Assembly (NCBI RefSeq): GCF_964194155.1
Contig: NC_135887.1
Coordinates: 40,486,001 to 40,550,000, forward strand
Reading direction: 5' to 3'
DNA from: Cetorhinus maximus
Taxonomy: Eukaryota
DNA: 64,000 nt
Shown: one piece after another, positions 2,301 through 54,649 of the stretch
Layout of the letters: every line of letters starts with the position of its first letter
How positions within the stretch are numbered: the stretch's first letter is position 1
Program-made: the position numbers and the translations under genes
Notes under the pieces: generated by a model
Database searches by the model: none
What the model was told of the DNA's origin: nothing
What the model saw: only the letters and a program-made list of their open reading frames with translations

Positions 2301-2633
2301 AAAAATTCTTTCATGGGATGTGGGTGTCGCTGGCAAAGCCAGCATTTGTTGCCCAAGCCTAAGTGCCCCTTGAACTGAGTGGCTTGCTAGGCCATTTCAG
2401 AGGGCAGTTAAGAGTCAACCACATGGCTGTGGGTCTGGAGTCACATGTAGACCAGACCAGGTAAGGATGGCAGATTTCCTTCCTTAATTGTCATGGTCAC
2501 CATCACTGAAACTAGCTTTATACTCCAGACTTTTTACTAATTGAATTTAAATTCCACCAGCTGCCATGGTGGGATTTGAACCCATGTCTGGATTACTAAT
2601 CCAGTGACTTTACTATTACACCACTGTCTCCCC
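2301..2633 (-). mobile_element. tRNA-derived SINE made of the family A head and tail
   Basis: A-box-like TGGTGTAATAG (2613-2623) and B-box GGTTCAAATCC (2572-2582); body matches 24158-24400 and tail matches 21200-21267. Confidence 0.85.
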
Positions 2634-2669: not shown

Positions 2670-3315
2670 TTTTTATTTCATAGGATGTAGGCATTGTTGG
2701 AAAGACTGGCATTTATTGCACTTAGAAAGCAGAGGTTGAAAGGTCAGCCATCTGTAGAGAGAAACAGATTTAATACTTCAGATTGATGACCCTTCATCAG
2801 AACAGGGTCATCGAACAGGAATGTTAACTCTGTTTCTCTCCACAGATCCTGCTTGACCTGCTCCGTATTTCTGGCAGTTTTTTGTTTTTATTTTTGATTT
2901 CCAGCATCTGCAGTATTTTGCTTTCATGTTGAAGTAGTAGTGGTTGGCCTTTTTGAACCACTTGTAGCAATTTGATATAACTGTGGCCTGCTAGACTACT
3001 TCATAAGGTAATTAAGAGTCAGCCACATTGGTGTAGATCTGGAGTTACACGTAGGCCAGACTAGGTGAGGGTGGCAGAGATGGGTTGTTGGCTGTTCCAC
3101 GAATCTCCCTAAACTGACTGCTTGACTTAATAAAGGACATTAGGGAATCAGTTGGGTTTTTACAACAATCCAACAGATTCATGGTCACTTTTACTAATGC
3201 CAGTTTAATTATTACTAGATTTTTTTCTAATTATTTCAAATTCTCAAACTGCCAGGGAGGGATTTGAAGTTATATTTGCTGCGTTGCTAATCTGGTACAA
3301 AACCACTACACTATG
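2670..3315 (-). mobile_element. Older family A SINE copy interrupted by a Penelope-like terminal fragment (~2745-2925)
   Basis: Head and body at ~2935-3315, tail at ~2670-2720, matching the 2301-2633 element. Confidence 0.65.
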
Positions 3316-10807: not shown

Positions 10808-11340
10808 TAATTGGACTAGTCATATAAATACTGTTGCTACAAGAGCAGATCGGAAGCTAGGAGTACTGCAGCGAGTAACTCGCCTCCTGTCTCCTCAAAG
10901 CCTGTCTACCATCTACAAGGCATAAGTCAGGAGTGTAATAGAATACTTTCCACTTGCCTGGATGAGTGCAGCTCCAATAACACTCAAGAAGCTTGACACC
11001 ATCCAGGGCAAAGCAGCCCGCTTGCTTGGCACCTTGTCCACGAGCATTCACTTCCTCCACCACGGCGCACAGTGGCAGCACTGTGTACCATCTACAAGAT
11101 GCACTGTAGAAACTCACCAAGGTTCCTTTGACAGCACCTTCCAAACCCATGACTGCTACCAATTAGAAGGACAAGGGCAGCAGACACAAGGGAACACAAC
11201 CCGGAAGTTCCCCTCCCTAACAGCACTGGACTGCAGTGTTTCAAGAAGGCAGCTCACCACCACCTTCTCAAGGGCAATTAGGATGGGCAATAAATGCTGG
11301 TCTAGCCAATAATGCCCACATCCCATGAATGAATAAATAA
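10808..11340 (+). mobile_element. Family A LINE 3' fragment
   Basis: MSAAPITLKKLDTIQGKAARL and tail CCCACATCCCATGAATGAAT. Confidence 0.88.
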
Positions 11341-13796
11341 CAAAACAAATGACCAGAGACATCTCATAATTAGCCTTCCAACTTGCAAATTCTTTCTACC
11401 TTGAGCATTTTTCAAAAAAATGTATATACTGTATAAATATGGCACTGGACACGATTGTAATTCCCAATGATATAGCGAACAATAAGTAATTCAATTGGAG
11501 ATGGCAGGCGTTGTATTTCTATGTTTGCTTAATGCAAACTTACCATTCACTCACAAGACATAAACTAAACATAGGTTTGGTTTAATTGAAGATGTAGTGC
11601 AGGATTGCTCAGCAGACGGATTTGCTATAAAGATTCAACAGCTATTGTTAGCAGGAAAATGCAGTTGCAACTCCTTCACACCACATGCTGCCAGCCAAAC
11701 AGAAAGCTACTCAGTATAACGCCTGCTGAACACTTGGTTTACATCCTGGCTACTTACACATTAGCATATTCTAAAAGTGATATCACAACAGCGGCTCGGA
11801 GAGTGAAATCATAAGCATCGGGTGATACTAAGGAGAAATAAGTGCGAAGAAATGCATGAACATGGAGAATTTTGCCTACTGAGCTAACGCACATAATCAT
11901 GTGGGGAAATGAGATGAAACATTCTCTCGTATCAGTTCTCAGCACTGTTCACTGGGCAAAGACTCAGCATCTTAGTTCCTTGCCCTAGCTCCTGTCTTGT
12001 CCCAGGCTATCCCTCAGTGCATTGCACTCGAGAATCGACAGGTGCTGCCTCTTGTATAGACTGGCTTGCCTATCTTCTCTACCTCTTTATCCTTCAATCC
12101 AAACCTGTGAAAACAAAAAGGAGGCCCCAGCTCTGATTCACACTCATTGGATGGCATCCCTGGATTGACAGGGCATCTTAACTGCTGCTTGTCCTGATTC
12201 TAATTGGTCTATTATCACGTGAATTTTTTTTCTGTACATTCCGTTTTTTTTTGGCAGACCTCTAAAAACTTTCTTGTGAACCCCTGATGTAAAGAATTAA
12301 AAGAAGTAATATTTTATATATGTTGATGGGATTTTCTATTTAAATACATATTGTTTGGATGTAACCTTCTTCCTGTAGTGCTTGCCAGTTTTTATTGTTT
12401 TTCTCTATAAATAGGACCATCTGGATTAGTTAGTAAAAACTCCAGTACAGGCACTGACTATTGGATAACACTAGAGCATGTTTTCCTCTTAGCTCTGACT
12501 CTAACATATTGGATTTTCTACTGTAAGTTAGCTGGGGAAGCAGCTTATTACTTAACTATGAGTGTCTTATCTATTTGATATTAATTCTTCACTTGGAAGT
12601 ACCTATTTCTGCCACCCTGTCTGTCATTTCTGTTTGTGTTCAGTTCTAATTTAATGGCCTGATAATAGCTCTTTTTTTATTTCTATTGCCCTCTCACCTC
12701 ATTTACTTCTCTCTTTTCCTTTCACTCCTACCCTATGCCCTCTCCCACTGCTTTGCTTCTCTTTCTTTCATAGGTTAAAAATATGGTGTTGTCTGATGCA
12801 TAGTTCACTATCATCAAAGCCACCAATTCACGAAGTAAGTCAAATTCTGTTCTATCGAATCAGCAGGAAATGTGACACTTGCAGGCATTGTTTCATTTAT
12901 GTAAGACTTTCAATGTTTATAATATTTATAAATCTTGCCCCTACACTTTCTGCAGTCCATCCCTAAGGCTTCAAAGTCTCTTAATTGTTGAGGATTCATA
13001 CACTTGCCCTTGGGCATTCATGCTCGGAGAGACAGTTACAAATATGACAGTAGGTGCAGTGAGGACAAAACTTTCCTGTCACAGAGTGACAATGGACTAA
13101 ACAATGACTTTCCATCTGCCGCACATCCTGGAAAATCATTTTCAGTGTTTGAAAATAGGTATGGTGCTTGCTAACCATTTTGTTCAGAGGAAGGTCAATG
13201 AGCCATTGTTCAAAGGGCTGTCTCTTGGGATTGGCAGGCTCCATTTAAATTTGCCATTGATCTGTCTCTTATTCAGGTGCTCTGTGACCAAATCTTCATC
13301 TCCACCATCTTACTCCTTTGGGAGAATCACTCCAGCCCGATGATGGAGCGAATAGAAAAAATTGGCATGCCTGAAACTGTAGGCCTATGCTCATACATAA
13401 AGGGAAAAATATAATTTCTTCCTGCTCCTCTTGTTCTTGTCATTCATCACCAGTAAAGAGGTTACAATGAATTGTATGCACTCATAAAAAGGCAGAATTG
13501 CAGGAGTAGCAAGTTGTGTGATGGGGCGATGAAAGTTAGCCTGTGCTGCTCAAGCAAGATGGAAATTCAAGGCAGAAAAGATGTAGCCACAACTGGGAGA
13601 AGCTTAACTTAAATTGCTGATTGCTAGTGCAGAGTGCCTCCTAGGCCACTGGAAAATTTGGGATACTCGTCAGTGAACCAGCTGCTTAATGTCAGGGATT
13701 CCCTGCCACTACCCATTCCTGACCCCTGTCTCTCTGAGAAATGAAAAGCCATCTTACCCCTGCAAGGACAAGACAGTATGAAAGGTTTGTGCTTTT

Positions 13797-14745
13797 CAAA
13801 AATTCATTCACTGGATGTAGGTGTTGCTGGCTAGACCAGCATTTATTGTCCACCCCTAATTGCCCTTGAGAAGGTGGTGGTGAGCTGCCTGCTTGAACCG
13901 CTGCAGCCCATGTGCTGTAGTTACACCCAAAGTGCTGTTAGGGAGTTCCAGGATTTTGACCCAGCAACAGTGAAGGAACGGCGATATATTTCCAATTCAG
14001 GATGATGAGTGACTTGGAGTGGAATTTCCAGGTGGTGGTGTTCCCAGGTGTCTGCTCCCTTGTCCTTTTAGATAGTAGTGGTCATGGGTTTGGAAGGTGC
14101 TGTCTAAGGAGCCTTAGTGAGTTCCTGCAGTGCATCTTGTAGATGGTACAGTGCTGCTACTGTCTGTCGGTGGTGGAGGGAGTGAATGTGGTGCCAATCA
14201 AGTAGGTTGCTTTGCCCTGGACGGTGTCAAGCTTCTTGAGTGTTGTGGGAGCTGCACTCATCCAGGCAAGTGAGGAATATTCCATCACATCCCTGACTTG
14301 TGCCTTGTAGATGGTGGACAGGTTTTGGGGAGTCAGGTGGTAACTTGTCGCTGGATTCCTAGCCTCTGACCTGCTCTTGTAACCACAGTATTTATATGGC
14401 TAGTCCCGTTCAGTTTCTGGTCAATGGTAACCCCCAGGATGTTGATAGTGGGGAATTCAGTGATGTTAATGCCATTGAACGTCAAGGGGTGATGGTTAAA
14501 TTCTCTCTTGTTGGAGATGGTCATTGCCTGGCACTTGTGTGGCAAGAATGTTTCTTGCCAATCATTGGCCCAAGCCTGGAAATTGTCCAGGTTGTGCTGC
14601 ATTTGGACATGGACTGATACCTGAGTTGTGAACGGTGCTGAACATTGTGCAATTATCAGCGAACATCCCCACTCCTTACCTTATGATGGAAGGCCATTGA
14701 TGAAGCAGCTGAAGATAGTTGGGCCGAGGACACTACCCTGAGGAG
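13797..14745 (-). mobile_element. Family A LINE, 5'-truncated copy
   Basis: Closely matches 21200-22175 (HKCQAMTISNKR...NILGVTIDQKL) and has the same GAATGAAT tail. Confidence 0.9.
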
Positions 14746-15129: not shown

Positions 15130-15920
15130 GGTACAGTAGAATAGTGGTTGTTACTGGACAAGTAATCCAGAAGTCTGGGTTTGTAATCCAAAGATGTCAG
15201 TTCAAATCCCACCATGGTAATTTTCCAACAATACTCAAGAAGCTTGACAGCATCCAGGACAAAGAAACCCACTTGATTAGCACCCCCAAATGAATATAAA
15301 CAAATTTATGAATTTGCATCTAGTTTAAAAAAAAATCTGAATCAAATCAGTAATGATGATCATGAAGCTCTATGTCTTAAAAACCCAGCTGGGTTTCTAT
15401 TACCCTTTATGGGAGGAAATCTACTTTTCCATGCAACCCCAGACCCACAGCAAGGGCCTGCTAAGCCACTCCATTATATCAGACCTCTTATTGAGAAGTA
15501 TAATGAAACTGGATGGGCCATTCAACTAAAGGCCATTGCTGCAGATTTCCACAGGGCAGTGTCTTGGGCTCAACCATCTTCAGCTGTTTCAACAATGGCC
15601 TTCCCTTCATCATAAAGTCCGAAGTGGGTATGTTTGCTATATTCAGTTCCATTTGCAATTCCTCAGCCAGTGAAGCTTTTGTGCTCAGACATAAGACATG
15701 GAAAAAATTGTAGTGGACCAGTTAGGTAGGCTGTGGCTACAAGAGCAGGTCAGAGGTTGGGTGTTATGCAGCATGTGACTACCAAAGCCTTTCCATCACC
15801 TACAAGGCACAAGTCAAGGGTGTGATTTAATATTTGCCACATGCCTGTACAAGTACAGCTCCAACTACACTCAAGCACAACACCATCCGGGGCACAGCAG
15901 CTTGCTTTATAAGCATTCCA
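15130..15920 (+). mobile_element. Family A deletion derivative (tRNA-like head plus RT fragments)
   Basis: Head with GTTCAAATCCCACCATGG, followed in the same orientation by PQGSVLG..IFSCF and GCTACAAGAGCAGGTCAGAGG patches. Confidence 0.75.
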
Positions 15921-17855: not shown

Positions 17856-18318
17856 TAATTTTCTTCTTGCCAGCCCAGAGCAGCTGAGGACCCCAGTTGC
17901 TGCCCCAGCTGAGATCTGCTAATTGAGGGCATTAAACAGAGATCTTATGCTCTGTGCTGCTTCAACTGCAAATAATTTATTTTTTTCCTTTATTCACCTA
18001 CGCAGACTTTCACCTGTTGTCAGGTTCCCAAATATTATCATCAGGGCCACTGTTTTATAGTGATTGAATAAGTCAAACTTTGCTTTTATTCAATGGCATT
18101 AAGGGATTTTGACCAGCGCTTAGTTAATTGCTTTCTGCAACTCTATTTATATTTAGACCCATTGATCTATGATGGCTGAATAAATCAAATTCCACTTTGA
18201 TTAGGTGGGAATGGATATTTTTACCAATCTTGGTGCATAAAATTCTGTTTTTCTATAAAAACCACCAAAGAAAGTGATTATGATACATCAGTAAACCAAG
18301 AATATAAGTAAAACTTAC

Positions 18319-18483
18319 AATTTCTAACTCCTCAGAAAATTCTTCACTTTCCATCACTTTAATCAATGGCTTCAACTTTTCCTTAAGACGCTTTCCATCC
18401 CTTGCCGGGAGCCTGAGTCGGAGTCTCATGTGAGCACGTTCAATCTTCATACTCTCCTTTAGTAATCTTATTACTTCGAGTGC
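18319..18483 (-). CDS. SBDS: SBDS coding exon 4
   Basis: [55 protein letters not shown]; 165 nt; AAG acceptor, GTAAGT donor. Confidence 0.97.
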
Positions 18484-19554
18484 CTTTGTTTGTGGAGGAA
18501 TTAAAAATACATTATTTCTAACCTGCACATTGGACCATTTAATTGGGTAGAATTTATGACAATATCAATGCATTTGAGAGGATATCGTATACAAACCAAT
18601 TCAAAACAATTAAGTTTGTTTTGATTACAGTACAGTATTGATATTTGAGAATTGGTATGTAAATATGAAAAATAACCAGTGCTTGTTTTGAGTTTTGTCT
18701 ATTGGATCTCCTACCTCAATTTATGGATTGTTCTTTCAAAGTGCAAAAAGTGTCAAACCGGGCAGCTAATACACAGATAGCAAAGTCCTGCAAATAGCAA
18801 GTGCGTGAATGACCAGATAATCTGTTCCTTGTGGTGGTGGTTGAGGGATATATGTTGCCAAAAACCTGGGAGAAATATGACTTAAAATAGCAGCATCCAA
18901 TTTTTTATGTCCAACTGTGCAGGCCGATAGAGCCTTGGTTGAATATTTCATCAAGACCTCCAACAATGCTGTACTCCCTCAATTCTGCACTGAACTACAA
19001 ACCTACGTTATGTGCTTACATTGAAGAATGCAACTGACCACTACCATGCCAGGGCAAAGAGGAATGGGCAATAAATGCCAGCTTTGCCAGCTACATCCAA
19101 AGCCCAAGAATGATTAAGAGAAGTCTGCGAAAGGGCTTGAACTGAATAACTTTAAGAAGCAAGAGTGCAACCAAATGAATCAAGTGGATCTTTCCACAAT
19201 TTAATTAAAAATTGTGAGCAACTTACAAAAGTTCCTCAATTAAAGGATTCTCACATTTTACATGAAAACCTATCAAAAATCAATCAAAATGGTATGAAAT
19301 AGCAAAGCTTAAAAGATGCTGTAGCAAGATTAAACAAATGGTTTATAAAACATAAAATGAAACTAATCTAATCATGTAAAATAAAGCTCCCATTGCTAGA
19401 TATCGCACATTATATACAGCTGAAGTGGTAACCAGGCAACCACTTCAATACCTTTTGGAAATCTTATTCTCCTTAATGAGAATCATAACTATCAAAACAT
19501 ATTCTGTAAATACAAACATCATTTTTCCCTAGTCAACGTCCAATGTTAATCTAC

Positions 19555-19755: not shown

Positions 19756-21191
19756 CTGTAAAAGAAAACATTTAGATATATTTGAAGTTTAATTCTGATA
19801 TATAAAAAAAGGAACTTGTCCAATAAGCTGACACAATCCTGATTGTTAGGAAGAGAGGCATCAGTATTTATTTTTAAACTAGCTTTCTCACTATTACTGC
19901 TTATTACACTTTGACATTATTGGTTAGAGGCAGTTTGGGAACAGATGGAGTCTGGAATATCTTTGATTCTACATATATTCATGTTGTTACCACATACAAC
20001 CACACAATGTAACATCAATATTTGCTATTTCTGAAAGATTACAGGCAATGTGTAAATGTTTCCAGTGTGCCAAATTAAATTAAATTGGATCACTTCCATT
20101 CATTTCTCAAACAACATTCCAATCAAAAAATGTACAACTTTGTTCCTATAAGGAGGGGCAAAATAAAACAAATTATTCAAATGCACAAAACCAAGATTGT
20201 GTGAAATAATTATTACTATTTGCATAATAATTTGATAATGTAAATCATTTTGTCATCTATTTTTTAATCTTAAAAGGATATACTTTGGGACCGGCTTACA
20301 AAAATATTTAATGAAGCAATGTCTGAAAGATTAGCCATTCAGAAATGTACAGTATTCTGGTTGCAAGTTCCACCTGTGTCCAACTTTCCAAGAAACTAAA
20401 AATAATTATATTGGCGGGGCATGGACAAGTGAAATCTGTGTTTTCATAATTTAATTATTTCTTTGAGTAAGGAAAACAAATTTCCCAGGAAGCAATCAGA
20501 AGACACTACATTTAACATTTGCAGAGATCTCTTAGGAGCTCACAACATACGATGGACAAAGGGAAACTAACCCTCATATTTGAGAGATCCCAGGAATTCA
20601 GTGAGCTAAACTTCACATTTCAACACTGGGTGTTGCCAAACCCTCAATTTTCCCTGCAATGTTGCCAAACCTTAACACTTATAACCTTAGTGCTACATTC
20701 CTGTGCTAGCAAACTTCAGGACCATCTCAAAGCAACAAAACCTCAGGATTGCTACACACCCCTGCTGCACCCCTCACCCTGTCCCGGCAATACCACTAAA
20801 CACCAATAAATGATGCATGGTGCCTTGCTGTGTATCCTTAGATTTAAAAATGGATATGGATTAATTATAGAAGTAAAATAATTCTATATTTAACGGTTAT
20901 CACTTATTTTTAAGAATCTTCCTTTTCAAGAAACTATCCAGTTCCATTATAAAATTATTTACAGATTCAGGAGGTTTGTGACAGATAAATTGCAACTTCC
21001 ACAGTGCTATCAAGCTGTAAGAGGTCACGAGGTCCTTCCCAATGTCACCAAATTACAGGACTCAAAATCTTAGGATTTAAAAATGCCAAACAAAAAACAC
21101 TTACTTCTGAAGATAACATGCCCAATGATTGCAAATAAATAATGAGTGAAAGACACTAATCAAGAATTAGACACAATCTGAAATCCCAATT

Positions 21192-24100
21192 TTAAAAAAA
21201 ATTCATTCACGGGATGTGGGCATTGTTGACTGGGCCAGCATTTATTGCCCATCCCTAGTTGCCCTTGAGAAGGTGATTGTGAGCTGCCATCTTGTACTGC
21301 TGCAGTCCATGTGGTGTTGATACACCCACAGTGCTGTTAGGAAGGGAGTTCCAGGATTTTGACCCAGTGACATTGAAGGAACCGCGATATATTTCCAAGT
21401 CAAGATAGTGAGTGACTTGGAGGGGAACTTCTAGGTGGTGGTGTTCCCATCTATCTACTGCCCTTCTCCTACTAGAAGGTAGTGTTTGTGGGTTTGGAAG
21501 GTTCTGTCTAAGGAGCCTTGGTGAATTCCTGCAGTGCATCTTGTAGATGATGCACATTGCTGCTACTGTGCGTCGGTGGTGTAAAGAGTAAATGTTTGTG
21601 GATGTGGTGCCATTCAAGCGGGCTGCTTTGTTCTTGATGGTGTCAAGCTTCTTGAGTGTTGTGGGAGTTGCACTCATCCAAGCAAGTGGGGAGTATTCCA
21701 TCACACTCCTGACTTGTGCCTTGTAGATGGTGGACAGGCTTTGGGGAGGCAGGAGGTGAGTTACTCGTCACAGGATTCCTAGCCTCTGACCTGCTCTTGT
21801 AGCCACAGTATTTATATGGCTAGTCCAGCTCAGTTTCTGGTCAATGGTAACCCCCAGGATGTTGATAGTGGGGAATTCAGTGATGGTAATGGCATTGAAC
21901 ATCAAGGGATGATGGTTAGATTCTTTCTTGTTGGAAATGGTCATTGCCTGGCACTTGTGTGGCGCGAATGTTACTTGCCACTTGTCAGCCCAAGCCTCGA
22001 TATTGTCCAAGTCTTGCTGCATTTGTACATGGACTGCTTCAGTGTCTGAGGAGTCTTGAATGGTGCTGAACATTGTGCAATCATCAACGAACATCCCCAC
22101 TTCTGACCTTATGATGAAAGGCAGGACATTGTTGAAGCAGCTGAAGATGGTTGGGCCGAGGACACTATCCTGAGGAACTCCTGCAGTGATATCCTGGAGC
22201 CGAGCTGACTGACCTCCAACAACCAGAGCCAATCCTTTGTGCTAGATATGACTCCAACAATGAAAGTTTTCCCCCTGATTCCCATTGACTCCAGTTTTGC
22301 TAGGGTTCCTTGATGCCACACTTGGTCAAATGTGGCATTGATGTCAAGGGCAGTCACTCTCACCTCACTTCGGGAGTTCAACTCTTTTGTCCATGTTTGA
22401 ACCAAGGCTGTAATGAGGTCAGGAGCTGAATGGCCCTGCCGGAATCCGAACTGGGCATTAGTGAGCATTGCTAAGCAAGTGCCGCTTGATAGCACTGTTG
22501 ATGACCCCTTCCATTACTTTACTGATAATCAAGAGTAGGCTGTTGGGACGGTTTTTGGCGGGTTGGATTTGTCCTGCTTTTTGTGAACAGGACATACCTG
22601 GGCAATTTTCCACATAGCCCAGCAGATGTCAGTGTTGTAGCTGTACTGGAACAGCTTGGCTGGGGGCCCGGCAAGTACAGGAGCACAAGTCTTCAGTACT
22701 ATTGCCGGAATATTGTCAGGCCCTTAGCTTTTGCACTATCCAGTGCCTTCAGCCATTTCTTGATATCAAGTGGAGTGAATTGAATTGGCTGAAGACTGGC
22801 ATCTGTGATGCTGGGGACCTCTGGAGGAGGCCAAGATGGATCATCTACTCCGCACTTCTGGCTGAAGATTGTAGCAAACGCTTCAGCCTTATCTTTTGCA
22901 CTGATGTGCGGGACTCCTCCATCCTTAAGCATGGGGATATTTGTGGAGCCTCCTCCTCCAGTGAGTTACTTAATTGTCCACCATCATGCACAACTGGATG
23001 TGGCAGTACCGTAGAGCTTAGGTCTGATCTGTTGATTGTGGGATCGCTTAGCTCTGTCTATCACTTGCTGCTTACGTTGTTTGGTATGCAAATAGTCCTG
23101 TGTTATAGCTTCACCAGGTTGACACCTCAATTTTAGGTACGCCTGGTGCTGCTCCTGGCATGGACTCCTGCACTCTTCATTGAACCAGGGTTGATCCCCT
23201 GGCTTGATGGCAATGGTAGAGTGGGGTAACGCCAGGCCATGAGGTTACAGATTACGTTCCAGTACAATTCAGCTGCTGCTCATGGCCCACAGCACCTCAT
23301 GGATGCCCAGTCTTCAGTTGCTAGATCTGTTTGAAATCTATCCCATTTAGCATGGTGGTAGTGCCACACAACACGATGGAGGGTATCATCAATGTGAAGG
23401 CTGGACTTTGTCTCCATGACGACTCTGCGGTGGTCACTCCTACCGATACTGTCATAGACAGATGCATCTGCGGCAGGCAGGTTGGTGAGGATGAGGTCAA
23501 GTATGTTTTTCCCTTCTGTTGGCTCCCTCACCACCTGCCGCAGACCCAGTCTAGCAGCTATGTCATTTAGGACTCGGCCAGCTTGGTCAGTAGTGGTGCT
23601 ACCGAGCCACTCTTGGTGATGGACATTGAAGTCCCCCACCCAGAGTACATTCTGCACCTTTGCCACTCTCAATGCTTCCTCCAAGTGGTGTTCAACATGG
23701 AGGAGCACTGATTCATCAGCTGAAGGAGGATGGTATGTGGTAATCAGCAGGAGGTTTCCTTACCCATGTTTGACCAGATGCCATGAAACTTCATGGGGTC
23801 CGGAGTCGATGTTGAGGGCTCCCAGGGCAACTCCCTCCCGACTGTATAACACTGTGCTGTCACCTCTGCTGGGTCTGTCCTGCCTGTGGGATGGGGCATA
23901 CCCAGGGATGGTGATGGTGATGACTGGGACATTATCTATAAGATATGATTCAGTGAGGATGACTATGTCAGGCTGTTGCTTGACTAGTCTGTGAGACAGC
24001 TCTCCCAATTTTGACAGTAATCCCCAGATGTTAATAAGGAGGACTTTGCAGGGTCGACAGGGCTGAGTTTACCATTGTTGTTTCTGGTGCCTAGGTTGAT

Positions 24101-24438
24101 GCCAGGTGGTTCTTCCAGTTTCATTCCTTTGTTTGAGACTTTGCAGAGGTTTGATACAACTGAGTGGCTTGCTAGGCCATTTCAGAGGGCATTTAAGAGT
24201 CAACCACATTGCTGTAGGTCTAGAGTCACATGTAGGCCAGACCAGGTAATGACGGCAGATTTCCTTCCCCAAGGGACATTGGTGAACCAGATGGGTTTTT
24301 ACAACAATCGACAATGGTTTCATGGTCATCATTAGACTTTTAATTCCAGATTTTTATTAAATTCAAATTCCACCATCTGCCTTGGTGGGATTTGAACCCA
24401 GGTCCCCAGAGCATTACCCTGGGTCTGTGGATTACTAA
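21192..24438 (-). mobile_element. Near full-length single-ORF non-LTR retrotransposon (family A; CR1/L2-group-like APE+RT) with tRNA-like 5' head
   Basis: Frameshifted ORF with APE motifs (PDIVILTESYL, VGDFNVHH, LDLILTN, SDH) and RT motifs (QFGFR, ALDINATFDQVWH, GVPQDSVLGP, FVDD); 3' tail CCCACATCCCGTGAATGAAT+A; B-box GGTTCAAATCC at 24388-24398. Confidence 0.92.
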
Positions 24439-24459
24439 TATTGGACCACATACTATATT

Positions 24460-25392
24460 AATATCAAGCGGCACTTACACAGCAATAACCTGCTCACCGA
24501 TACTCGGGTGCAGTTCCGCCAGGGCCAATCAACTCCTGACCTCATTACAGCCTTGGTCCAAACATCAAGAAAAGAGCTGGATGTAAGCAGTGAGCTGAGA
24601 GTGACTGCCCTTGGCACAAAGCATTTGACCGAGTGTGGCATCAAGGAGCTCTAGGAAAATTGGGGAATGGGGGAAAACGCTCTACAGGTTCAAGTCATAC
24701 CTAGCACAAAGGAAGATGGTTGAGGCCAATCGTCTCAGCCCAGGAGCATCACTGTAGGAGTTCCAACACAGATGCCAGGTAATGACCATCTCCAAGAGAG
24801 AATCTAACCATCTCCCCATGCATTCAATGGAAATGCCATGGCTGAAACTCCACTGTCAATATCCTGGGCTGGGGCTTACCATTGACTGGAAACTTAACTT
24901 GGTAAGCCACATAAATATTGTGGCTAAAAGAGCAGGTCAGAGGCTGGGAATTCTGCAGCAAGTAACTCAGCTCTTAGCTCCCCAAAACCTGTATACCATC
25001 GACAAGGCACAGGTCTGAGTATGGTGGAATACTCTCCACTTACTTGCATGAGTGCAACTCCAACATCACTCAAGAAGCCCTGTCCACCACCTTAAATATT
25101 CATTCCCTCTGTTGCCAACACACAGTGGCAGCAGTGTGTACCATATTTAAGTTGCACTGCAACAACTTCCAAACCTGCTCCTTCTACAACCGAGAAGGAC
25201 AAGGGCAGCAGATGCATGGACCCACCACCACCTGCAAGTTCCCACCCACCATTCTGACTTGGAACTATATCACCGTTCTTTCACTGTCGCTGGGTCAAAA
25301 TCCTGAACTCCCTTCCTGATAGCACTGTGGGTGTACCTGCATTAACGGACTGCAGCAGTTCAAGAAGCTGGCTCACCACCACCTTCTTTAAG
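24460..25392 (+). mobile_element. Family A LINE, internally deleted older copy
   Basis: Collinear patches matching the RT and C-terminal region of 21192-24438 in the opposite orientation; a matching tail piece appears at ~28762-28807. Confidence 0.85.
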
Positions 25393-25659: not shown

Positions 25660-28600
25660 TGTGAGGTGGTCACACCGCAGGTAAAGAGTGCACAGGCAGA
25701 AAGGGAATGGGGTGACTGTCAGATTAAAAGCACTAGTCAGGTAATGCAGGAGTCCCCTGGGTCCATCTTCCTCTCTTACAGATTTTCCGTTTTGGATACT
25801 GCTGGGGGAGATGGTTTCTCAGGGGAATGCAGCAAGAGCCAAGTCCGTGGCAACACCAGTGGCTCAGCTGCACGGACAGTGGGGGGTGGGAGAATGAAGG
25901 ATAGAAAAGTAGAAAGCAAAATTGGAAGGCAGAGGAAATAATGGCTAGCAGCAAATAGGGCCATAGTACAAAAGATGATGTGTAACAATGTTAAAAAGAC
26001 ACATCTAAAGGCACTGTATCTGAATGCATGGAGCATTCGCAATAAGGTAGACAAATTAACAGCACAAATAGATGTACAATACGATTGCAATTATGGACAC
26101 ATGGCTGCAGGGTGACTAAGGCTGGGAGCTGACTATCCAAGGGTACTCAATATTCAGGATGAACAGGCAAAAGGAAAAGGAGGTGGGGTGGCATTGTTAG
26201 GTAAGGATGAAATCAGTGCGATAGTGAGAGGATTTCGGGTCATAAAATCTAGATGTAGAATCAGTCTGGGTGGAGCTAAGAATCAACAAGGGGTGGAAAA
26301 CATTAGTGGGAGGTGTCTACAGGCCTCCAAACAGTAGCGGTAAAGTAGGGGATGGCATTAAACAGGAAATTAGAGATGCATGTAACAAGGGTGCTGCAGT
26401 AATCATGGGTGACTTTAATCTACATATAGACTGGGGAAACCAAATTAGCAATAACACTGTGGCAGATGAATTCCTGAGTGTGTACAGGATGGATGTTTTG
26501 ACCAGTACATCGAGGAACCAACTAGGGAAGAGGCTATCATAGATTTGGTGTTGTCCAATGAGAAGGGGTTAATTAATAATCTTGTTGTGCGGGGTCATCT
26601 AGTGATCATAATATGATTTAATTCCTCATTAGGGTGGAAAGTGAAGTAGTCCGATCCGAAAGTAGGGCCCTAAATCTAAACAAAGGAAACTACGAAGGTA
26701 TGAGGTGCAAGTTGGCTTAGATTAGGAAACTTCATTAAAAGGCATGATGGTGGATAGGCAATGGCTAACATTTAAGGAACTAATGTATGCATTGCAACAG
26801 CTATACATTCCTTTCTGGCGCAAAAGCACAACAGGAAAAGTGGTCCAACCGTGGTTAACAAAATAAATTAAGAATAGTATTAGATCCAAAAAGGAGTCAC
26901 AAAGTTGCTAGAAAAAGTCGCAAGCCTGAGGATTGGCAGCAGTTTACAATTCAGCAAAGTAGGGCCAAGAGATTGATTAAGAGGGGAAAAATAGTGTATG
27001 AGAGTAAACTTGCAAGGAACATAAAAGTAGACTGTAAAAGCTTCTGCAAGTATGTAAAAAGAAAAAGATTAGTGAAGACAAATGTAGGTCCCTTACAGTC
27101 CGAAACAGGAGAATTTATACTAGATAACAAGGAAATGGCAGAGTAATTAAACATCTACTTTGGTTTTGTCTTCACAGAGGAAGACACAAATAACTTCCCA
27201 GAAATGCGAGGGAACCAAGGGTCCGGTTAGGAGGAGGAATTGAAGGAAATTAGTATTACTAAAACAATAGTTCTGGAGAAATTAATGGGACTGAAAGGCG
27301 ATAAATCCCCATGGCCTGACTATCCACATCCCAGGGCACTAAAGGAGATGGCCACGAAACTAGCGGATGCATTAGTCATCATCTTCCAAAATTCTACAGA
27401 TCCTGGAACAGTCCCGGCAGATTGGAGGGTGACAAATGTAACCCCACTATTTAAAGGAGGAGAAAACTGGGAATTACAGACCCATTAGCCTAGCAATAGT
27501 AGGGAAAATGCTCAAGTCTATTATAAAGGACACTTAGAAAATATCAACGGGATTAGACAAGGTCAACATGGGTTTATGAAAGGGAAATCATGTTTGATGA
27601 ACCTACTGGAGTTTTTTGAGGACATAACAAGCAGAATAAATTAGGAAGAACCAGTGGATGTGGCGTATTTGGATTTTCAGAAAGCTTTTGATAAAGTTCC
27701 ATGAGGTTGGTGTGCAAAATTAAAGCACATGGGATTGGAGGTAATACATCGGCATGGATTGAGAATTGGCTAGCAGACAGGGAACAGAGAGTAGGAATAA
27801 ATGGGTCTTTTTCAGAGTGGCGGGTGGTGACTAGTGGGATACTGCAGGGATCAGTGCTTGGGCCCCAGCTATTCACAATTTATATCAATGATTTGGATGA
27901 GGGAACCAAATGTAATATTTCCAAGTTTGCTGATGACATGAAACTTGGTGGGAGTGTGAGCAGCGAGGAGGATGTTAAGAGGTTCAAGGCGATTTAGACA
28001 AGTTGAGTGGGCAAATACATGAAAGATGCAGTATAACGTGGATAAGTGTGAAGTTATTTACTTCGGTAGGAAAAACTGAATGGCAGAGTATTATTTAAAC
28101 GGTGATAGATTGGGAAATGTTGATGTATAAAGAGACCTGGATGGGTGTCCTTGTACACCAATCACTGTAAGTAAGCATGCAGGTGCAGCAAGCAGTTAAG
28201 AAGGCAAATGGTATGTTGATGTTCATTGCAAGAGGACTTGAATACAGGAGCAAGGATGTCTTACTGCAGCTGAAAAGGGCCTTGGTGAGACCACACCTGG
28301 AGTATTGTGTGCAATTTTGGTCTCCTTACCTAAGAAGGGATATACTTGCCATCGGGGGAGTGCATTTAAGGTTCACCAGGCTGATTCCTGGGATGGCAGG
28401 ATTGTCATATGAGGAGAGGTTGGGCCAACTAGGCCTGTATTTACTGGAGTTTAGAAGAATGAGAGGGGATCTCGTTGAAATGTATAAAATTCTAACATCT
28501 GGATGCCGGGGTGATATTTCCACTGATTGGGTAGGGGGGGTCTAGAACCAGGAGTCACAGTCTCAGGATATGGAGTAGACCATTTAGGACTGAGATGAGG

Positions 28601-29111: not shown

Positions 29112-29344
29112 CTGAAAATGCATAGAAGTCATGTTGAGAAAGAGAGCTACATTTACTCATACATACAGAAGGAAACCACATGATCTTTCCCTTTCTAAAT
29201 ATCCCAAACTTCACTCTGAGAATATCCAACAAGATAACATTATTCCAAGTTTTCGATCACCCTATGCCTTGATCCTTTCCCTAACGCAGAATGCAAGTTA
29301 GATGACTCGACTCCTGCAATCAGAAATCAAACTTTTGCTCTTGA

Positions 29345-31790
29345 TTTTTTCATTGCGAACTGTCGGCGTGACATCGGCCATCTCAATTTCTCTGCTCCTT
29401 TCACCCACTCTAACCTGTCTCCTTCTGAACTTGCCGCATTCCAACCCTGACTTTGTTATCAAATTTGCTGACAAGGGCGGTGCTGTTGTTGTCTGGTGTA
29501 CTGACCTCTACCTCACAGAGGCTGAGTGCCAACTCACAGGCACTTCCTCCTACCTCCCCCTGGACCATGACCCCACCACCGAACATCAAGCCATTGTTTC
29601 CAGGACTGTCACTGACCTCATCTCCTCTGGAGATCCTCCCTGCACAGCTTCCAACCTCAGTCTCCCAACCTCGGACAATCCGCTTCTACCTCCTCCCCAA
29701 AATCCACAAACAGGACTATCCCGATCGTGTCAGCCTGTTTCTGCCCCACGGAACTCATTTCTTCCTATTTTGACTCCGTTCTCTCTCCCCTTGTCCAGTC
29801 TCTTCCCACCTACATCCGCGATTCCTCTGATGCCCTACATCACATCAACAATTTCCAGTTCCCTGATCCTAACCGCCTCCTCTTCACCATGGACATCTAA
29901 TCCCTCTACACCTCCATCCCCCAAAGGATGGTCTGAGGACTCTCCGCTTCTTCCTTGAACAGAGGCCCGAACAATCCCCAACCATCACCACTCTCTCTGT
30001 CTGGCTGAACTTGTTCTCTCACTGAACAATTTCTCCTTAAACTCATCTCACTTCCTCCAAATAAAAGGTGTGGCTATGGGTACCCATATGGGCCCCAGTT
30101 ATGCCTGTCTCTTTATGGGGTATGTGGAACACTCCTTGTTCCAGTCCTACTCAGGCCCTCTCCCACAACTCTTTCTCCAGTACATTGATGATTACTTCGG
30201 TGCTGCTTCATGCTCTCATCTGGACCTGGAAAAATTTATTAATTTTGCTTCCAATTTCCACCCCTCCATCACTTTCACATGGTCCATCACTGACACTTCC
30301 CTTCCCTTCCTTGACCTCTCTGTCTCAATTTCTGGTGATAGACTGTCCACCAATATTCATTACAAGCCCACCGACTCCCACAGCTACCTCAACTACAACT
30401 CCTCACACCCTGCTTCCTATAAGGACTCCATCCCATTCTCTCAGTTCCTTTGCCTCCGTCGCATCTGTTCCGATGATGCCACTTTCAAAAACAGTTCCTC
30501 TGACATGTCTTCCTTCTTCCTTAACCGAGGTTTCCCACCCACGGTGGTCTCCGGGCCCTCAACCGTGTCCAACCCATCTCCCGCACCTCTGCCCTCACAC
30601 CTTCCTCTCCCTCCTGGAACCATGATAGGGTCCCCCTTGTCCTCACTTTTCACCTCACCAGCCTCCGCATTCAAAGGATCCTCCGCCATTTCCGCCAACT
30701 CCAGCATGATGCCACCACCAACCATATCTTCCCTTCACCCCCCCCCCACCCCGGTCAGCATTCCGTAGGGACCGTTCCCTCCGGAACATCCTGGTCCATT
30801 CCTCCATCATCCCCTACACCTCAACCCCCTCCCACGGCACCTTCCCATGCAATCGCAGAAGGTGCAACACTTGCCCCTTTAGTTCCCCCCTCCTCACCGT
30901 CCAAGGGCCCAAACACTCTTTTCAAGTGAAGCAGCGCCTCACTTGCACTTCCCTCAATTTGGTCTACTGCATTCGCTGCTCCCAATGCGGTCTCCTCTAC
31001 ATTGGAGAGACCAAACGCAGACTGGGTGACCGCTTTGCGGAACACCTTCGGTCTGTCCACAAGCACGACCCAGACCTTCCTGTCGCTTGGCATTTCAACA
31101 CACCACCCTGCTCTCATGCCCACATGTCTGTCCTTGGCCTGCTGCAATGTTTCAGTGAAGCTCAACGTAAACTGAAGGAACAGCACCTCATTTTCCGATT
31201 AGGCAATTTACAGTCTTCTGGTCTTAACACTGAGTTCAACAACTTCAGATCATGAACACTCTCCTCCATCCTCACCCCTTTTTTCAATATTTATCTTTTA
31301 ATTTATATATTTTTCCCCCACCTATTTCTATTATTATTTTAAAAAATTTATTTCCAATCATTGTTTTATCCCCACCTTTTAGCCTATTTCAATCTTTTTT
31401 CCCACACTGTCCCCTCTCCCCACCCCACCCCACCAAGATCATCCGTCACTTGCTCATCCTGCTTTCTACTCTTAATGTCACCATTAGCACCTCCTTTAGC
31501 CAGTATCACCACCGTCAACACCCCTTTGTTTATGACATCTTCTGCAATCTCTCCTTTGCCTTCACCTATCGCTGGCCTTCTATCCAGCTTCACCTGCTCC
31601 ACCCCCCTTAAACAGTATATGTTTCACCACATTTCTACTTCTCTTCAGTTCTGAAGAAGAGTCATACGGACTCGAAACGTTAACTCTGTCCTTCTCTCCA
31701 CAGATGCTGTCAGACCTGCTGAGCTTTTCCAGCAATTTTTGTTTTTGTTTCAGATTTCCAGCATCCGCAGTATTTTGCTTTTATTCTATA
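29345..31790 (+). mobile_element. Penelope-like element (family P1; RT plus GIY-YIG), 5'-truncated, in SBDS intron 1
   Basis: ADKGGAVVV, FYLLPKIHK, GVAMGTHMGPSYA, YIDD, LPFLDL, YKPTDSH; GIY-YIG NLVYCIRC..LYIGETKRRL; terminal repeat with hammerhead-like motif. Confidence 0.93.
31647..31685 (+). ncRNA. Minimal hammerhead ribozyme-like motif in the P1 terminus
   Basis: AGTT-CTGAAGA-A-GAGTC(ATACG)GACTC-GAAAC-GTT-AACT: stem I, CUGANGA, stem II, GAAA, palindromic ACGT in place of helix III. Confidence 0.7.
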
Positions 31791-32018: not shown

Positions 32019-32755
<737 letters not shown>

Positions 32756-35567: not shown

Positions 35568-38398
35568 GGTCAAGAAAATTTAAGAATTTTCATAATGTTA
35601 TTGGAATTTATTGTAAGGTAGGAATAATGTGTGTGTAGGGGGGACTTAAATGAAATAAAGACCTGGAGGCTTTGATGTATCAGAAGAGAAGCTAGGTTTG
35701 AAATGTTAAATAGATAAACATGGCTGAAGTTTTAGAATGTGAGGTATAAAGGAAAAATTTGCATTTTTAGATAAACCAGAATATTTTGAATTTCAGAAGA
35801 GGTGGTGAAATGTTACACTTAGCCAGAAGAAGCCAAACAATGTGTTTAATTTTCCCTAAGCTTACTGATAAAATTGATACTATGAAAGATTTTTATTATT
35901 AGAAAAGTAGAGTTGAAAAGTCATATTGGGACAATTAAGAAGGCAGAAACCTGTATAAAGGAGATGGGGTTATGAGTAAGAGTTCAATGAAGAGTGCAGG
36001 AGGGCATGCCAGGAGCAGCACCAGGCATACCTAAAAATGAGGTGTCAACCTGGTGAAGCTATAAAACAGGATTACTTGCATGCCAAACAGCATAAGCAGC
36101 AAGTGATAGACAGAGCTAAGCGATCCCAGAACCAACAGATCAGATCTAAGCTCTGCAGTCCAGCTACATCCAGTCGTGAATGGTGGTGGACAATTAAACA
36201 ACTCACTTGAGGAGGTGGCTTCACAAATATCCCCATCCTCAATGATGGGGGAGCCCAGCACATCAGTGCAAAAGATAAGGCTGAAGCATTTGCAACAATC
36301 TTCAGCCAGAAATGCCGAGTGGATGATCCATCTCGGCCTCCTCCGGAGGTCCCCAGCATCACAGATGCCAGTCTTCAGCCAATTCGATTCACTTCACGTG
36401 ATATCAAGAAACGGCTGAAGGCACTGGAAACTGCAAAGGCCCTAACAACATTCCGGCAATAGTACTGAAGACTTGTGCTCCAGAACTTGCTGTGCCCCTA
36501 GCCAAGCTGTTCCAGTACTGCTATAACACTGACATCTACCAGGCTATGTGGAAAATTGCCCAGGTATGTCCTGTACACAAAAAGCTGGACAAATCCAACC
36601 CAGCCAATTACCGCCTCATCAGTCTACTCTTGATCATCAGTAAAGAAATGGAAGTGGTCATCAACAGTGCTATCAAGCGGCACTTGCTTAGCAATAACCT
36701 GCTCACTGATGCCCAGTTTGGATTCCACCAGGACCACTCAGCTCCTGACCTCGTTACAGACTTGGTTCAAACATGGACAAAAGAGCTGAACTCCCGAGGT
36801 GAGGTGAGAGTGACTGCCCTTGACATCAAGGCAGCATTTGACCAAGTGTGGCATCAAGGAGCCCTAGCAAAAGTGGAGTCAATGGGAATCAGGGGGAAAA
36901 CTCTCCACCGATTGAGTCATACCTAGCACAAAGGAAGATGGCTGTGGTTGCTGGAGGTCAATCATCTCAACTCCAGGACATCACTTCAGGAGTTCCTCAG
37001 GGCCCAACCATCTTCAGCTGCTTCATCAATGACCTTCCCTCCATCATAAGGTCAGAAGGGGGGATGTTTGCTGATGATTGCACAATATTCAGCACCATTC
37101 GCGACTCCTCAGAAACTGAAGCAGTCCATGTACAAATGCAGCAAGACCTGGACAATATCCAGGTTTGGGCAAGTAACATTCACACCACACAAGTGTCAGG
37201 CAATGACCATCCCCAACAAGAGAGAGTCTAACCATCATCCCTTGATGTTCAATGGCATTACCATCACTGAAACCCCCACTATCAACATCCTGGGGGTTAC
37301 CATTGACCAGAAACTGAACTAGACTAGCCATATTAATACTGTGGCTACAAGAGCAAGTCAGAGGCTGGGAATCTTGTGGCGAGTAACTTACCTCCTGACT
37401 CGCCAAAGCCTGTCCACCACCTACAAGGCACAAGTCAGGAGTGTGATGGAATACTCCCCACTTGCCTGGATGAGTGCAGCTCGTACAACACCGAAGAAGC
37501 TGGACACCATCCAGGACAAAACAGTCCGCTTGATTGGCACCACATCCACAAACATTCACTCCCTCCACCACCGACGCACAGTAGCAGCAGTGTGCACCAT
37601 CTACAAGATGCACTGCAGGAATTCACCAAGGTTCCTTAGACAGCACCTTCCAAACCCACGACCACTGCCAGCTAGAAGGACAAGGACAGCAGATAGATGG
37701 GAACACTCGCACCTGGAAGTTCGCCTCCAAGTCACTCACCATCCTGACTTGGAAATATATCGCCATTCCTTCACTGTCGCTGGGTCAAAATTCTGGAACT
37801 CCCTTCCTAACAGCACTGTGGGTATACCTACACCACATTGACTTCAGTGGTTTAAGAAGGCAGCTCACCACCACCTCCTCAAGGGCAACTAGGGATGGGT
37901 AATAAATGCTGGCTCAACCAGCGAAGCCCACATCCCGTGAATGAATTAAAAAAAAGAGAAAGGAATTCTAAGATCTAACAAGTGTGAAAAGCCTCCAGCC
38001 TCTCAGCCTCAAATTGCTGCATACACAAACTGAAGTGAAGAAAACTCAATTTGAATTCAACTGTTTAGGGCATCGTGTTACTTTGCTTGGATATTTTAAA
38101 ATCTGCGTTTTACTGTTGCCTTAACAGAGGTGTAACTCGGAGTTAGATTAACTGGAGGAGCTAGGAATTATCATAGTAGTAATTTGTAAACCTATGTATG
38201 TGTTTAAAACCATTTTTATTTTAATAAAGGCTTAATTTAGTTTTGTAAGAGACCTATAAGATTCAGTGGTCTTATTACTACGGAATTCAAGGCATGCATC
38301 TCAAAATAAATATAAATTGTAAAATAGTTGTGCCATTTGTTTCAAGTTTCCCTCTGGATCTGAACAGCTCAGCATTTACCATCCACTGTGCTATAACA
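35568..38398 (+). mobile_element. Related solo LTR split by the family A LINE
   Basis: 38220-38398 resembles the reverse complement of 40049-40230 (AGGGAAACTTGA shared) and ends ATAACA; the 35568 end resembles the reverse complement of the 41034 end; left boundary approximate. Confidence 0.65.
35980..37955 (+). mobile_element. Family A LINE, 5'-truncated copy inside a solo LTR
   Basis: RT motifs ANYRLISLL, QFGF, ALDIKAAFDQVWH, FADD; ends CCCACATCCCGTGAATGAATTAAAAAAA. Confidence 0.92.
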
Positions 38399-42504: not shown

Positions 42505-44787
42505 GATGAAGTTGAGGAGTTTGATGTGTTTTAGCTGATCAAGTTGTTAGAGTTGGGTTGTGGATGAGGATTTTGAAATCTTCTTTAGAAGGCTTCCTAG
42601 AGTTGGGCTGAAGTTGAGTTTGATGTGTTCGAGCTGATGAAGTGGAGTTGGGTGGAAGTTGAGGAGTTTGATGTGTTCGAGCTGATGAAGTGGAGTTGGG
42701 TGGAAGTTGAGGAGTTTGATGTGTTCTAGCTGATGAAGTGGAGTTGGGTGGAAGTTGAGGAGTTTGATGTGTTCGAGCTGATGAAGAGGAGTTGGGTGGA
42801 AGTTGAGGAGTTTGATGTGTTCTAGCTGATGAAGTGGAGTTGGGTGGAAGTTGAGGAGTTTGATGTGTTCTAGCTGATGAAGTGGAGTTGGGTGGAAGTT
42901 GAGGAGTTTGATGTGTTTGAGCTGATGAAGTGGAGTTGGGTGGAAGTTGAGGAGTTTGATGTGTTCGAGCTGATGAAGTGGAGTTGGGTGGAAGTTGAGG
43001 AGTTCGATGTGTTCGAGCTGATGAAGTGGAGTTGGGTGGAAGTTGAGGAGTTTGATGAAGTGGAGCTGGGTGGAAGTTGAGGAGTTTGATGTGTTCTAGC
43101 TGATGAAGTGGAGTTAGGTGGAAGTTGAGGAGTTTGATGTGTTCGAGCTGATGAAGTGGAGTTGGGTGGAAGTTGAGGAGTTTGATGAAGTGGAGTTGGG
43201 TGGAAGTTGAGGAGTTTGATGTGTTCGAGCTGATGAAGTGGAGTTGGGTGGAAGTTGAGGAGTTTGATGTGTTCGAGCTGATGAAGTGGAGTTGGGTGGA
43301 AGTTGAGGAGTTTGATGTGTTCTAGCTGATGAAGTGGAGTTGGGTGGAAGTTGAAGAGTTTGATGTGTTCGAGCTGATGAAGTGGAGTTGGGTGGAAGTT
43401 GAGGAGTTTGATGAAGTGGAGTTGGGTGGAAGTTGAGGAGTTTGATGTGTTCGAGCTGATGAAGTGGAGTTGGGTGGAAGTTGAGGAGTTTGATGTGTTC
43501 GAGCTGATGAAGTGGAGTTGGGTGGAAGTTGAGGAGTTTGATGTGTTCTAGCTGATGAAGTGGAGTTGGGTGGAAGTTGAAGAGTTTGATGTGTTCGAGC
43601 TGATGAAGTGGAGTTGGATGGGAGTTGAGGAGTTTGATGTGTTCGAGCTGATGAAGTGGAGTTGGGTGGAAGTTGAGGAGTTTGATGAAGTGGAGTTCGG
43701 TGGAAGTTGAGGAGTTTGATGTGTTCTAGCTGATGAAGTGGAGTTAGGTGGAAGTTGAGGAGTTTGATGTGTTCGAGCTGATGAAGTGGAGTTGGGTGGA
43801 AGTTGAGGAGTTTGTTGAAGTGGAGTTGGGTGGAAGTTGAGGAGTTTGATGTGTTCGAGCTGATGAAGTGGAGTTGGGTGGAAGTTGAGGAGTTTGATGT
43901 GTTCGAGCTGATGAAGTGGAGTTGGGTGGAAGTTGAGGAGTTTGATGTGTTCTAGCTGATGAAGTGGAGTTGGGTGGAAGTTGAAGAGTTTGATGTGTTC
44001 GAGCTGATGAAGTGGAGTTGGATGGGAGTTGAGGAGTTTGATGTGTTCGAGCTGATGAAGTGGAGTTGGGTGGGAGTTGAGGAGTTTGATGTGTTCTAGC
44101 TGATGAAGCGGAGTTGGGTGGAAGTTGAGGAGTTTGATGTGTTTGAGCTGATGAAGTGGAGTTGGGTGGAAGTTGAGGAGTTTGATGTGTTCGAGCTGAT
44201 GAAGTGGAGTTGGGTGGGAGTTGAGGAGTTTGATGTGTTCTAGCTGATGAAGCGGAGTTGGGTGGAAGTTGAGGAGTTTGATGTGTTCGAGCTGATGAAG
44301 TGGAGTTGGGTGGAAGTTGAGGAGTTTGATGTGTTCGAGCTGATGAAGTGGAGTTGGGTGGAAGTTGAGGAGTTTGATGTGTTCTAGCTGATGAAGTGGA
44401 GTTGGATGGAAGTTGAGGAGTTTGATGTGTTCGAGCTGATGAAGTGGAGTTGGGTGGAAGTTGAGGAGTTTGATGTGTTCTAGCTGATGAAGTGGAGTTG
44501 GGTGGAAGTTGAGGAGTTTGATGTGTTCTAGCTGATGAAGCGGAGTTGGGTGGAAGTTGAGGAGTTTGATGTGTTCTAGCTGATGAAGTGGAGTTGGGTG
44601 GGAGTTGAGGAGTTTGATGAAGTGGAGTTGGGTGGAAGTTGAGGAGTTTGATGTGTTCTAGCTGATGAAGCGGAGTTGGGTGGAAGTTGAGGAGTTTGAT
44701 GTGTTCTAGCTGATGAAGTGGAGTTGGGTGGAAGTTGAGGAGTTTGATGTGTTCTAGCTGATGAAGTGGAACTGGGTGGAAGTTGAG
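42505..44787. repeat. 48-bp minisatellite with 34-bp variant units
   Basis: Unit GATGAAGTGGAGTTGGGTGGAAGTTGAGGAGTTTGATGTGTTC(G/T)AGCT, about 45-47 units, homogeneous from ~42620. Confidence 0.97.
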
Positions 44788-44799
44788 CTTTTAAATGTA

Positions 44800-53964: not shown

Positions 53965-54350
53965 TTTAATCTGTTATATGCAAGTTATTTGGGAATGGGA
54001 GTTGGAATCTCACCATGGAAATATGCAAATTTGAACTTTTTTTTTTCATAAAAACTGGTAATATAAAGCTGAGACCAGTAAAATTAACCATGAAGCTGTC
54101 AGATTGCTGTAAAAACCCAACTGGTTCACTCATGTCTTTTCGGGAAGACAGCCTGTTATCCTTACCCAATCTGGCTTCTATGTGATCCAGTCCCACATGT
54201 GGTTGACACTTAACCATCTTCTTAAGTGTCCTAGCAAGTCACTCAGTTGTATCAAACTGCACAAAGTGGTTCAAGAAGAAGGACAACTAGGATGGGCAAT
54301 AAATACCAGTCTTGCCAGTAGTAGCCATACCCCGAAAATGAGAAAAAAAA
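53965..54350 (+). mobile_element. Family A SINE copy
   Basis: AAAAACCCAACTGGTTCACT...CCTAGCAAGTCACTCAGTTGTATCAAA body joined to the GGATGGGCAATAAAT..TTGCCAG tail. Confidence 0.75.
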
Positions 54351-54649
54351 CACAATCGGTATATTTACATTTGCACTTAAGTTACATTGATCACTGTATG
54401 ACACGTGTTTCAGGGGCTGGGATGAAACATTCTTTTAGTGTCGCAAATACTGTTTTCCTAACCTAAAAATTCTTTCTTTTTCTCAATTACCCATGTAGCT
54501 AAACATTGCTTTTTATTTTTATTGCAAAGATTGAAATACTCTTTCTATTGATGCTCTTTTGTATACTGCATTTCATGTTCACAAGTTTACTGTGAGTAAT
54601 GAAATAAACTGTTATAGCTTTAACTGTACAGCGCTTGTCCTTTTGTCAG

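Follow-up and report, generated by a model that had tools for sequence, protein, structure and literature searches.

A shark Zenon LINE with a tRNA-like SINE head and a sense strand purged of T-runs: a candidate for Pol III transcription

The stretch of Cetorhinus maximus DNA analysed here (the window; 64,000 nucleotides of contig NC_135887.1) carries on its minus strand, at 21191-24437, a 5'-clipped, decayed and dead copy of an elasmobranch Zenon LINE (CR1 group; full length ~3.3 kb), accompanied by several relatives (Table 1). The nearest named proteins to this element are those of shark and ray, and the APE-RT frame that the initial annotation had read from the sequence was recovered by Pfam as remnants of an endonuclease (Exo_endo_phos_2, E 3.6e-14) and a reverse transcriptase (RVT_1, E 2.7e-11). 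Upstream of the frame lies a tRNA-like head followed by a conserved SINE body, which we take to be Deu-like. The B-box proposed in the head is present (24398-24388), reading GGTTCAAATCC in this copy and GGTTCGAATCC in the family majority, and the A-box is indeed missing, because the copy begins 35 nt inside the head. The head had been put at ~400 bp; it is present, but only ~280 bp (24437-24158) are common to the SINE and the next ~125 bp form a spacer specific to the LINE. The reported lack of an ORF1 likewise stands but is not unusual, as all the Zenon LINEs surveyed by Stuart et al. 2026 (PMC13343379) are without one.

Table 1. Positions of the studied element, its parts, its relatives and the control families in the window
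Feature	Position	Strand	Remarks
Main SINE family copy	2301-2633	-	fixed junction CAGTT/CAAGGG; private internal deletion
Old head-plus-tail derivative	2670-3315	-	LINE-specific bases kept after body; interrupted by another repeat
5'-truncated, internally deleted Zenon LINE copy	10809-11344	+	87-88%
5'-truncated Zenon LINE copy	13802-14744	-	88.8%
Old, heavily deleted copy	15130-15920	+	head, body and RT patches (68-76%)
3' UTR stem-loop and A/T tail	21191-21254	-	same in SINEs; z -2.1 (L062 tail)
Single APE-RT reading frame	21255-24171	-	stops and frameshifts in this copy
LINE-specific spacer 5' of endonuclease	24033-24157	-	out-of-frame ATG at 24124-24122; no in-frame ATG
tRNA-like head and conserved SINE body	24158-24437	-	common to SINE family; first 35 nt, with A-box, missing
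ATG GCC TAG at end of body, in ORF frame	24172-24180	-	inside a predicted hairpin
Pol III B-box	24388-24398	-	see text for sequences
Older Zenon LINE fragment, unrelated insertion	24462-25387	+	73-80%; head-to-head with studied copy
CR1-like control family copy	27574-28545	+	
5'-truncated Zenon LINE copy	35982-37955	+	93.5% to majority
RTE-like control family copy	48401-49457	+	
Old head-plus-tail derivative	53965-54350	+	LINE-specific bases kept after body

Searches of the genome (4.0 Gb) began from the boundary between head and endonuclease. A 311-bp query spanning it gave 6335 first-look candidates, and all 40 matches that were scored cover it from end to end, one of them being the window copy itself and the others showing 89-91% identity. 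An 18-mer laid across the junction at the end of the body has 5827 exact matches, against none for the reversed control. On both counts the junction is not due to chance. The first 30 exact matches to the 18-mer made of the body end and GTA, taken unselected, comprise 23 that continue into APE, six that pass directly to the tail, each at a different junction, and one that ends. A further query from the start of the endonuclease, chosen without the head so as not to select for it, gave 11044 candidates, and in 24 of the 29 other loci that were fetched the upstream sequence reaches head or body, the remaining five breaking off in the spacer. Eight of the 29 extend to the first 2-4 bases of the head and carry both A and B boxes. 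Among these 29 loci no common sequence was found upstream of the head, save for one pair with another repeat, and neither they nor the family majority showed an ORF1 upstream of the endonuclease. The junction is thus not confined to one or two loci, and longer copies run into the head rather than into a conventional 5' UTR and ORF1.

The family majority rests on 29 sequences, the window copy plus 28 loci picked for coverage from a set of 40. It is 3293 nt long, which puts the full length at ~3.29 kb, with the A-box at 11-21, the B-box at 75-85 and a frame of 975 codons from 302; the only stop in this frame falls on a CpG site, at which the copies tie 10 to 10. Copies are 91-97% identical to the majority, and no intact copy was found among those examined. 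The full-length unit of the family is therefore head, spacer, ORF and tail. AATAAA lies ~45 nt upstream of the tail, which is a T followed by at least three As in 37 of 74 tails and a T-run followed by A in 19 more. Target-site duplications were sought in 19 near-full copies listed, eight of them testable, and none was convincing. Rfam gave no match in the window or the head, tRNA included, while ARAGORN called a tRNA on the head of one of the 11 loci scanned (L073). RNAalifold detected no covariation in eight heads (1 of 49 pairs), and single folds of head and body were no better than those of shuffles.

As the initial annotation had allowed, the family is already catalogued, head included, in the supplement of Stuart et al. 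2026 (PMC13343379), which gives Zenon LINEs from five elasmobranchs (CarCar_, HypSab_, RhiTyp_, ScyCan_ and SquAca_Zenon), all without ORF1 and with poly(A), the main entries being 3244-3314 long. These belong to the same family: their first 400 nt match the majority by eye, and three short motifs of the element match the published rows. Over the same 400 nt, and again by eye, all seven elasmobranch rows, from five sharks and rays, carry an A-like and a B-like box as well as the body and this junction, whereas the hagfish and coelacanth rows have no such head. The two boxes are kept across the five species while the spacing between them varies. The main text of the same paper contains no occurrence of tRNA, polymerase III or SacSINE, and the head, the avoidance of T-runs, the missing start codon and the derivatives described below are not discussed there. 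Known, then, are the family and the lack of an ORF1 in Zenon; the tRNA-headed architecture and the controlled T-run signature are unremarked. A literature search found no account of a Zenon with a tRNA head or of a LINE transcribed by Pol III, although prior annotation in repeat databases is possible. A quick RT tree (60 rows, mostly without named references) groups the element near butterfly proteins with an SH-aLRT of 89.

Chimeras between transposable elements that arise by template switching are known, and the headed copies might be such products, one-off or recurrent, in which a SINE was joined to a 5'-truncated LINE at insertion, there being no headed LINE that propagates itself. Such an origin can hardly be credited for one junction that stands at thousands of loci, and is the same in five species (PMC13343379), when the 29 loci of the head-free query offer no other 5' end; the fixed junction and the lack of an alternative 5' end refute it.

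Runs of four or more T end transcription by Pol III, and a check of the consensus sense strand for such terminators had been proposed from the window alone. The sense strand of the majority contains no T4, against 4.5 expected from shuffles, and six T3 against 21.9, while runs of A, C and G are at expectation. The depletion extends to the choice of codons: there are 4 T3 in the ORF as against 13.0 under same-codon permutation (0 of 3000), and an NTT codon is never followed by a codon starting with T (0/43, compared with 124/769 elsewhere). With codon usage fixed the absence of T4 is by itself weak (P0 ~0.09), and the strong signal is that of T3. The density of T4 in the copies is 0.31 per kb, as against 3.7 per kb in a co-resident CR1-like LINE family of like age, which shows no depletion (observed/expected 6/6.1 for T4 and 28/25.4 for T3); the corresponding figures for an RTE-like single-ORF LINE family with a similar T content (21% T) are 5/5.5 and 21/25.9. 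Headless homologs provide another comparison. A first metagenome scan gave no match, but a second yielded 80 homolog loci, in which a profile search found no tRNA-like head; among the 21 with long matches all contain T4 runs and none shows depletion. The sense strand of the headed family has thus been specifically purged of T-runs, down to the choice of codons.

The 5' region of one of the headless homologs (L298:250-480) looks, by eye, like the beginning of the coelacanth Zenon row (PMC13343379), a likeness that suggests another conserved 5' module among Zenons; Rfam gave no match for it. Within the shark family the A-tails often consist of a T-run and then an A-run, as at 21191-21200 in the window. 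That such T-runs are fossil terminators was ruled out, TTTTTAAAAA being a general pattern in the fetched loci (50, against 5 in the reverse order), and the bias is an unexplained mutational pattern.

Avoidance of T-runs is the mark that would be expected of transcription by Pol III. On the sequence evidence, the element is best read as a decayed copy of an elasmobranch Zenon with a tRNA-derived SINE head and body as its 5' end, the family having probably been transcribed by Pol III from the A and B boxes; we put the probability of this reading at roughly 0.6. A translated Pol III transcript of 3.3 kb is unusual, and an RNA made by Pol II would be capped and translatable. The head might then be a passenger or a processing signal, the RNA starting at an internal promoter in the body or arising by read-through from a host gene and being cut at the tRNA-like fold in the manner of RNase P, and T-runs being avoided through lineage composition or the shunning of U-rich splicing or decay signals. 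The AATAAA before the tail would suit such an RNA, and both the lepidopteran Zenon and its derivative Persaeus work without a Pol III promoter (PMC6740152). Phe is also scarce in some relatives: its content is 1.8% in the ORF of the element and similarly low (1.8-2.2%) in P0034, P0023 and P0071, so that the bias may in part be older than the head. A Pol II origin nevertheless appears doubtful, as the depletion is limited to T-runs of the sense strand and is absent both from the two co-resident LINE families and from the 21 headless homologs, and as the A and B boxes are maintained in five species despite their varying spacing (PMC13343379). The three low-Phe relatives could themselves be further Pol III-type LINEs, or could share a compositional trait of their lineage.

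Variants were collected from 68 copies and counted as shared when present in at least 15% of them. Omega is ~0.23 on the shared variants (16 nonsynonymous, 24 synonymous) against 1.04 on singletons; the protein encoded by the source elements therefore worked, and their copies have decayed neutrally. The ORF was thus under purifying selection in the source elements. How it would be translated is less obvious. Past the end of the body no in-frame AUG precedes the endonuclease, the first in-frame Met lying ~290 codons in, past the endonuclease. The ATG GCC at the end of the body was ruled out as a start: the next codon is TAG in 39 of 58 loci (GAG in 8), and a TAA variant is shared by 25 of 81. 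The TAG/GAG variation is linked to no other site. The out-of-frame ATG of the spacer survives in 72 of 86 copies and is also present in the published shark and ray Zenon heads (PMC13343379), and shared non-CpG changes between it and the endonuclease are few.

The initial annotation had further regarded the LINE and a series of short elements as a single system, in which SINEs arise from the LINE by internal deletion. Pieces of the head do occur at 2670-3315, 53965-54350 and 15130-15920, as it had stated. The last is an old copy that has a 61-bp piece of the LINE 3' part inside its head (15224-15284), and a search for its relatives gave RT patches only. Local BLAST also bears out that the element at 2301-2633 joins LINE position 24158 to 21268/21267, with one shared T. 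This element is not, however, a deletion step from the studied LINE subfamily, as it belongs to a separate high-copy family (hereafter the main SINE) with 5554 exact matches to a single fixed junction and diagnostic bases of its own in head and tail. What survives of the single system is a headed, multi-copy LINE that has repeatedly given birth to derivatives. These were sought with a gapped pattern in which the join had to be flanked by LINE-only bases, which gave 120 exact matches; the 100 listed fall into 32 length classes, 22 being of 51 nt and 13 of 43 nt, and several of the short derivatives carry, by eye, an older type of head. Head-plus-tail deletion derivatives have therefore arisen many times, and at least two junctions (51 nt and 43 nt) have been amplified. 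In having the joined 5' and 3' ends of a LINE in multiple copies with a fixed junction, the 51-nt and 43-nt classes are SIDEs. The main SINE copy and the derivatives are also short and non-coding like other tRNA-derived SINEs (SINE2), which the long element is not.

Deletions within long copies are of another kind. The 40 long copies have 24 internal deletions, all of them private, and a replicated series was ruled out by the absence of any recurrent deletion (0/24) in the 40 loci. Microhomology of at least 3 nt is found at 29% of these deletions, compared with 6% at random. The comparison with the control family (4 deletions in 35 kb) is biased by how the segments were cut.

Repeated deletion has a precedent in the lepidopteran Zenon, from which Persaeus, a SIDE, was derived as a repeated deletion derivative, microhomology and template jumping being proposed (Wang et al. 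2019, PMC6740152). The two systems are alike in that Zenon LINEs repeatedly yield derivatives joining their 5' and 3' ends. They differ in that Persaeus is described as lacking tRNA homology or a Pol III promoter, whereas the derivatives found here inherit the A and B boxes and are thus SINE-like at birth. The main SINE, presumably SacSINE1, consists of exactly head, body and tail and contains nothing foreign. In tRNA head, Deu body and LINE-like tail it agrees with SacSINE1 as published; SacSINE1 and LmeSINE1 are Deu-SINEs reported from sharks, skate, chimaera and coelacanth (Luchetti et al. 2017, PMC5499810). In that account only the tail is homologous to the partner LINE, L2-2_CM, whereas here head, body and tail are all common with a coding LINE. 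A comparable case is provided by the bipartite SINEs of Kojima 2018 (PMC5786205), in which, too, the middle matches a LINE 5' region; those found in the SINE bodies of Repbase came solely from RTE and Vingi. There the RNA-derived head was added after the deletion, while here an autonomous LINE carries the head together with a widely conserved SINE body.

Taken with the preferred reading of a SINE-headed, probably Pol III-transcribed LINE, these comparisons allow a history to be proposed. An ancestral Zenon may have acquired its head and body from an older SINE of Deu type, by template switch or recombination, before the split of sharks and rays; the main SINE is likely older than the headed LINE and the donor of its head. 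TFIIIC and Pol III would then make a 3.3 kb RNA from the head, an RNA that must lack UUUU, and its translation without an in-frame AUG could begin at a non-AUG codon or depend on the conserved upstream AUG, through a frameshift or reinitiation. The APE-RT would copy the RNA from its 3' stem-loop by target-primed reverse transcription. As promoter and RT-recognition tail occupy the two ends, a single internal deletion would yield a complete SINE-like unit, many times over, with at least two junctions amplified in turn.

The direction of the capture rests on published distributions: the wider range of the SINEs and the different 5' module of the coelacanth Zenon favour capture of a SINE head by Zenon before the shark-ray split. 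The reverse order, in which a tRNA/Deu-headed Zenon is ancient in jawed vertebrates, SINEs of the SacSINE1/LmeSINE1 type are its oldest deletion products and the Deu body is by origin a LINE 5' UTR, has some appeal, as the main SINE contains nothing foreign to the LINE and the same process has been repeated in this genome. Kojima 2018 (PMC5786205) had proposed such an origin for SINE bodies, none having been found by then. It is nonetheless unlikely. SacSINE1-like SINEs are reported from chimaera and coelacanth (PMC5499810), yet there is no chimaera row among the published Zenons and the coelacanth Zenon opens like the invertebrate homolog L298 by eye (PMC13343379), and Deu-type bodies are paired with many heads and tails in distant animals (PMC7245038, PMC11481361).

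A fuller version of the proposal can be put forward tentatively. The family would be an autonomous protein-coding retrotransposon with an uncapped 3.3 kb RNA, made by Pol III and cleared of U-runs. Ribosomes would be recruited by the Deu body, so that translation of the APE-RT needs no AUG, and single deletions would make the element a factory of SINEs. The origin of conserved SINE bodies was given as unknown by Kojima 2018 (PMC5786205), no matching LINE sequence having been found, and if the reading as an autonomous Pol III retrotransposon is true the headed Zenon would supply a highly conserved SINE domain with its first working context. Textbooks assign LINEs to Pol II and SINEs to Pol III; the headed Zenon blurs this division and is a natural place to test whether an RNA both long and translated can come from Pol III. 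The role of conserved bodies such as Deu becomes a testable question, as does the birth of SINEs, since a single genome here displays many independent events and two junctions that were amplified.

Several minor observations were made alongside. Eight shark gene models (P0001, P0002, P0061, P0074, P0080, P0089, P0100 and P0106) have pieces of the LINE fused into unrelated proteins, through exonisation or annotation error, and a run labelled as a coral metatranscriptome (X20) has contigs over all 30 bins of the element. Within the window, exon-like frames at 18253-18564 (minus strand) and 54608-54949 (plus strand) flank a GC-rich stretch near 32100-32700. They look to us like exons of SBDS and TYW1, in which case the studied LINE would presumably lie in an SBDS intron in sense orientation. 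From their translations, 29302-31255 (plus strand) and 57993-58655 (minus strand) are presumably remnants of a Penelope-like RT and GIY-YIG. A long degenerate tandem repeat, open in several frames, occupies 42539-44790.
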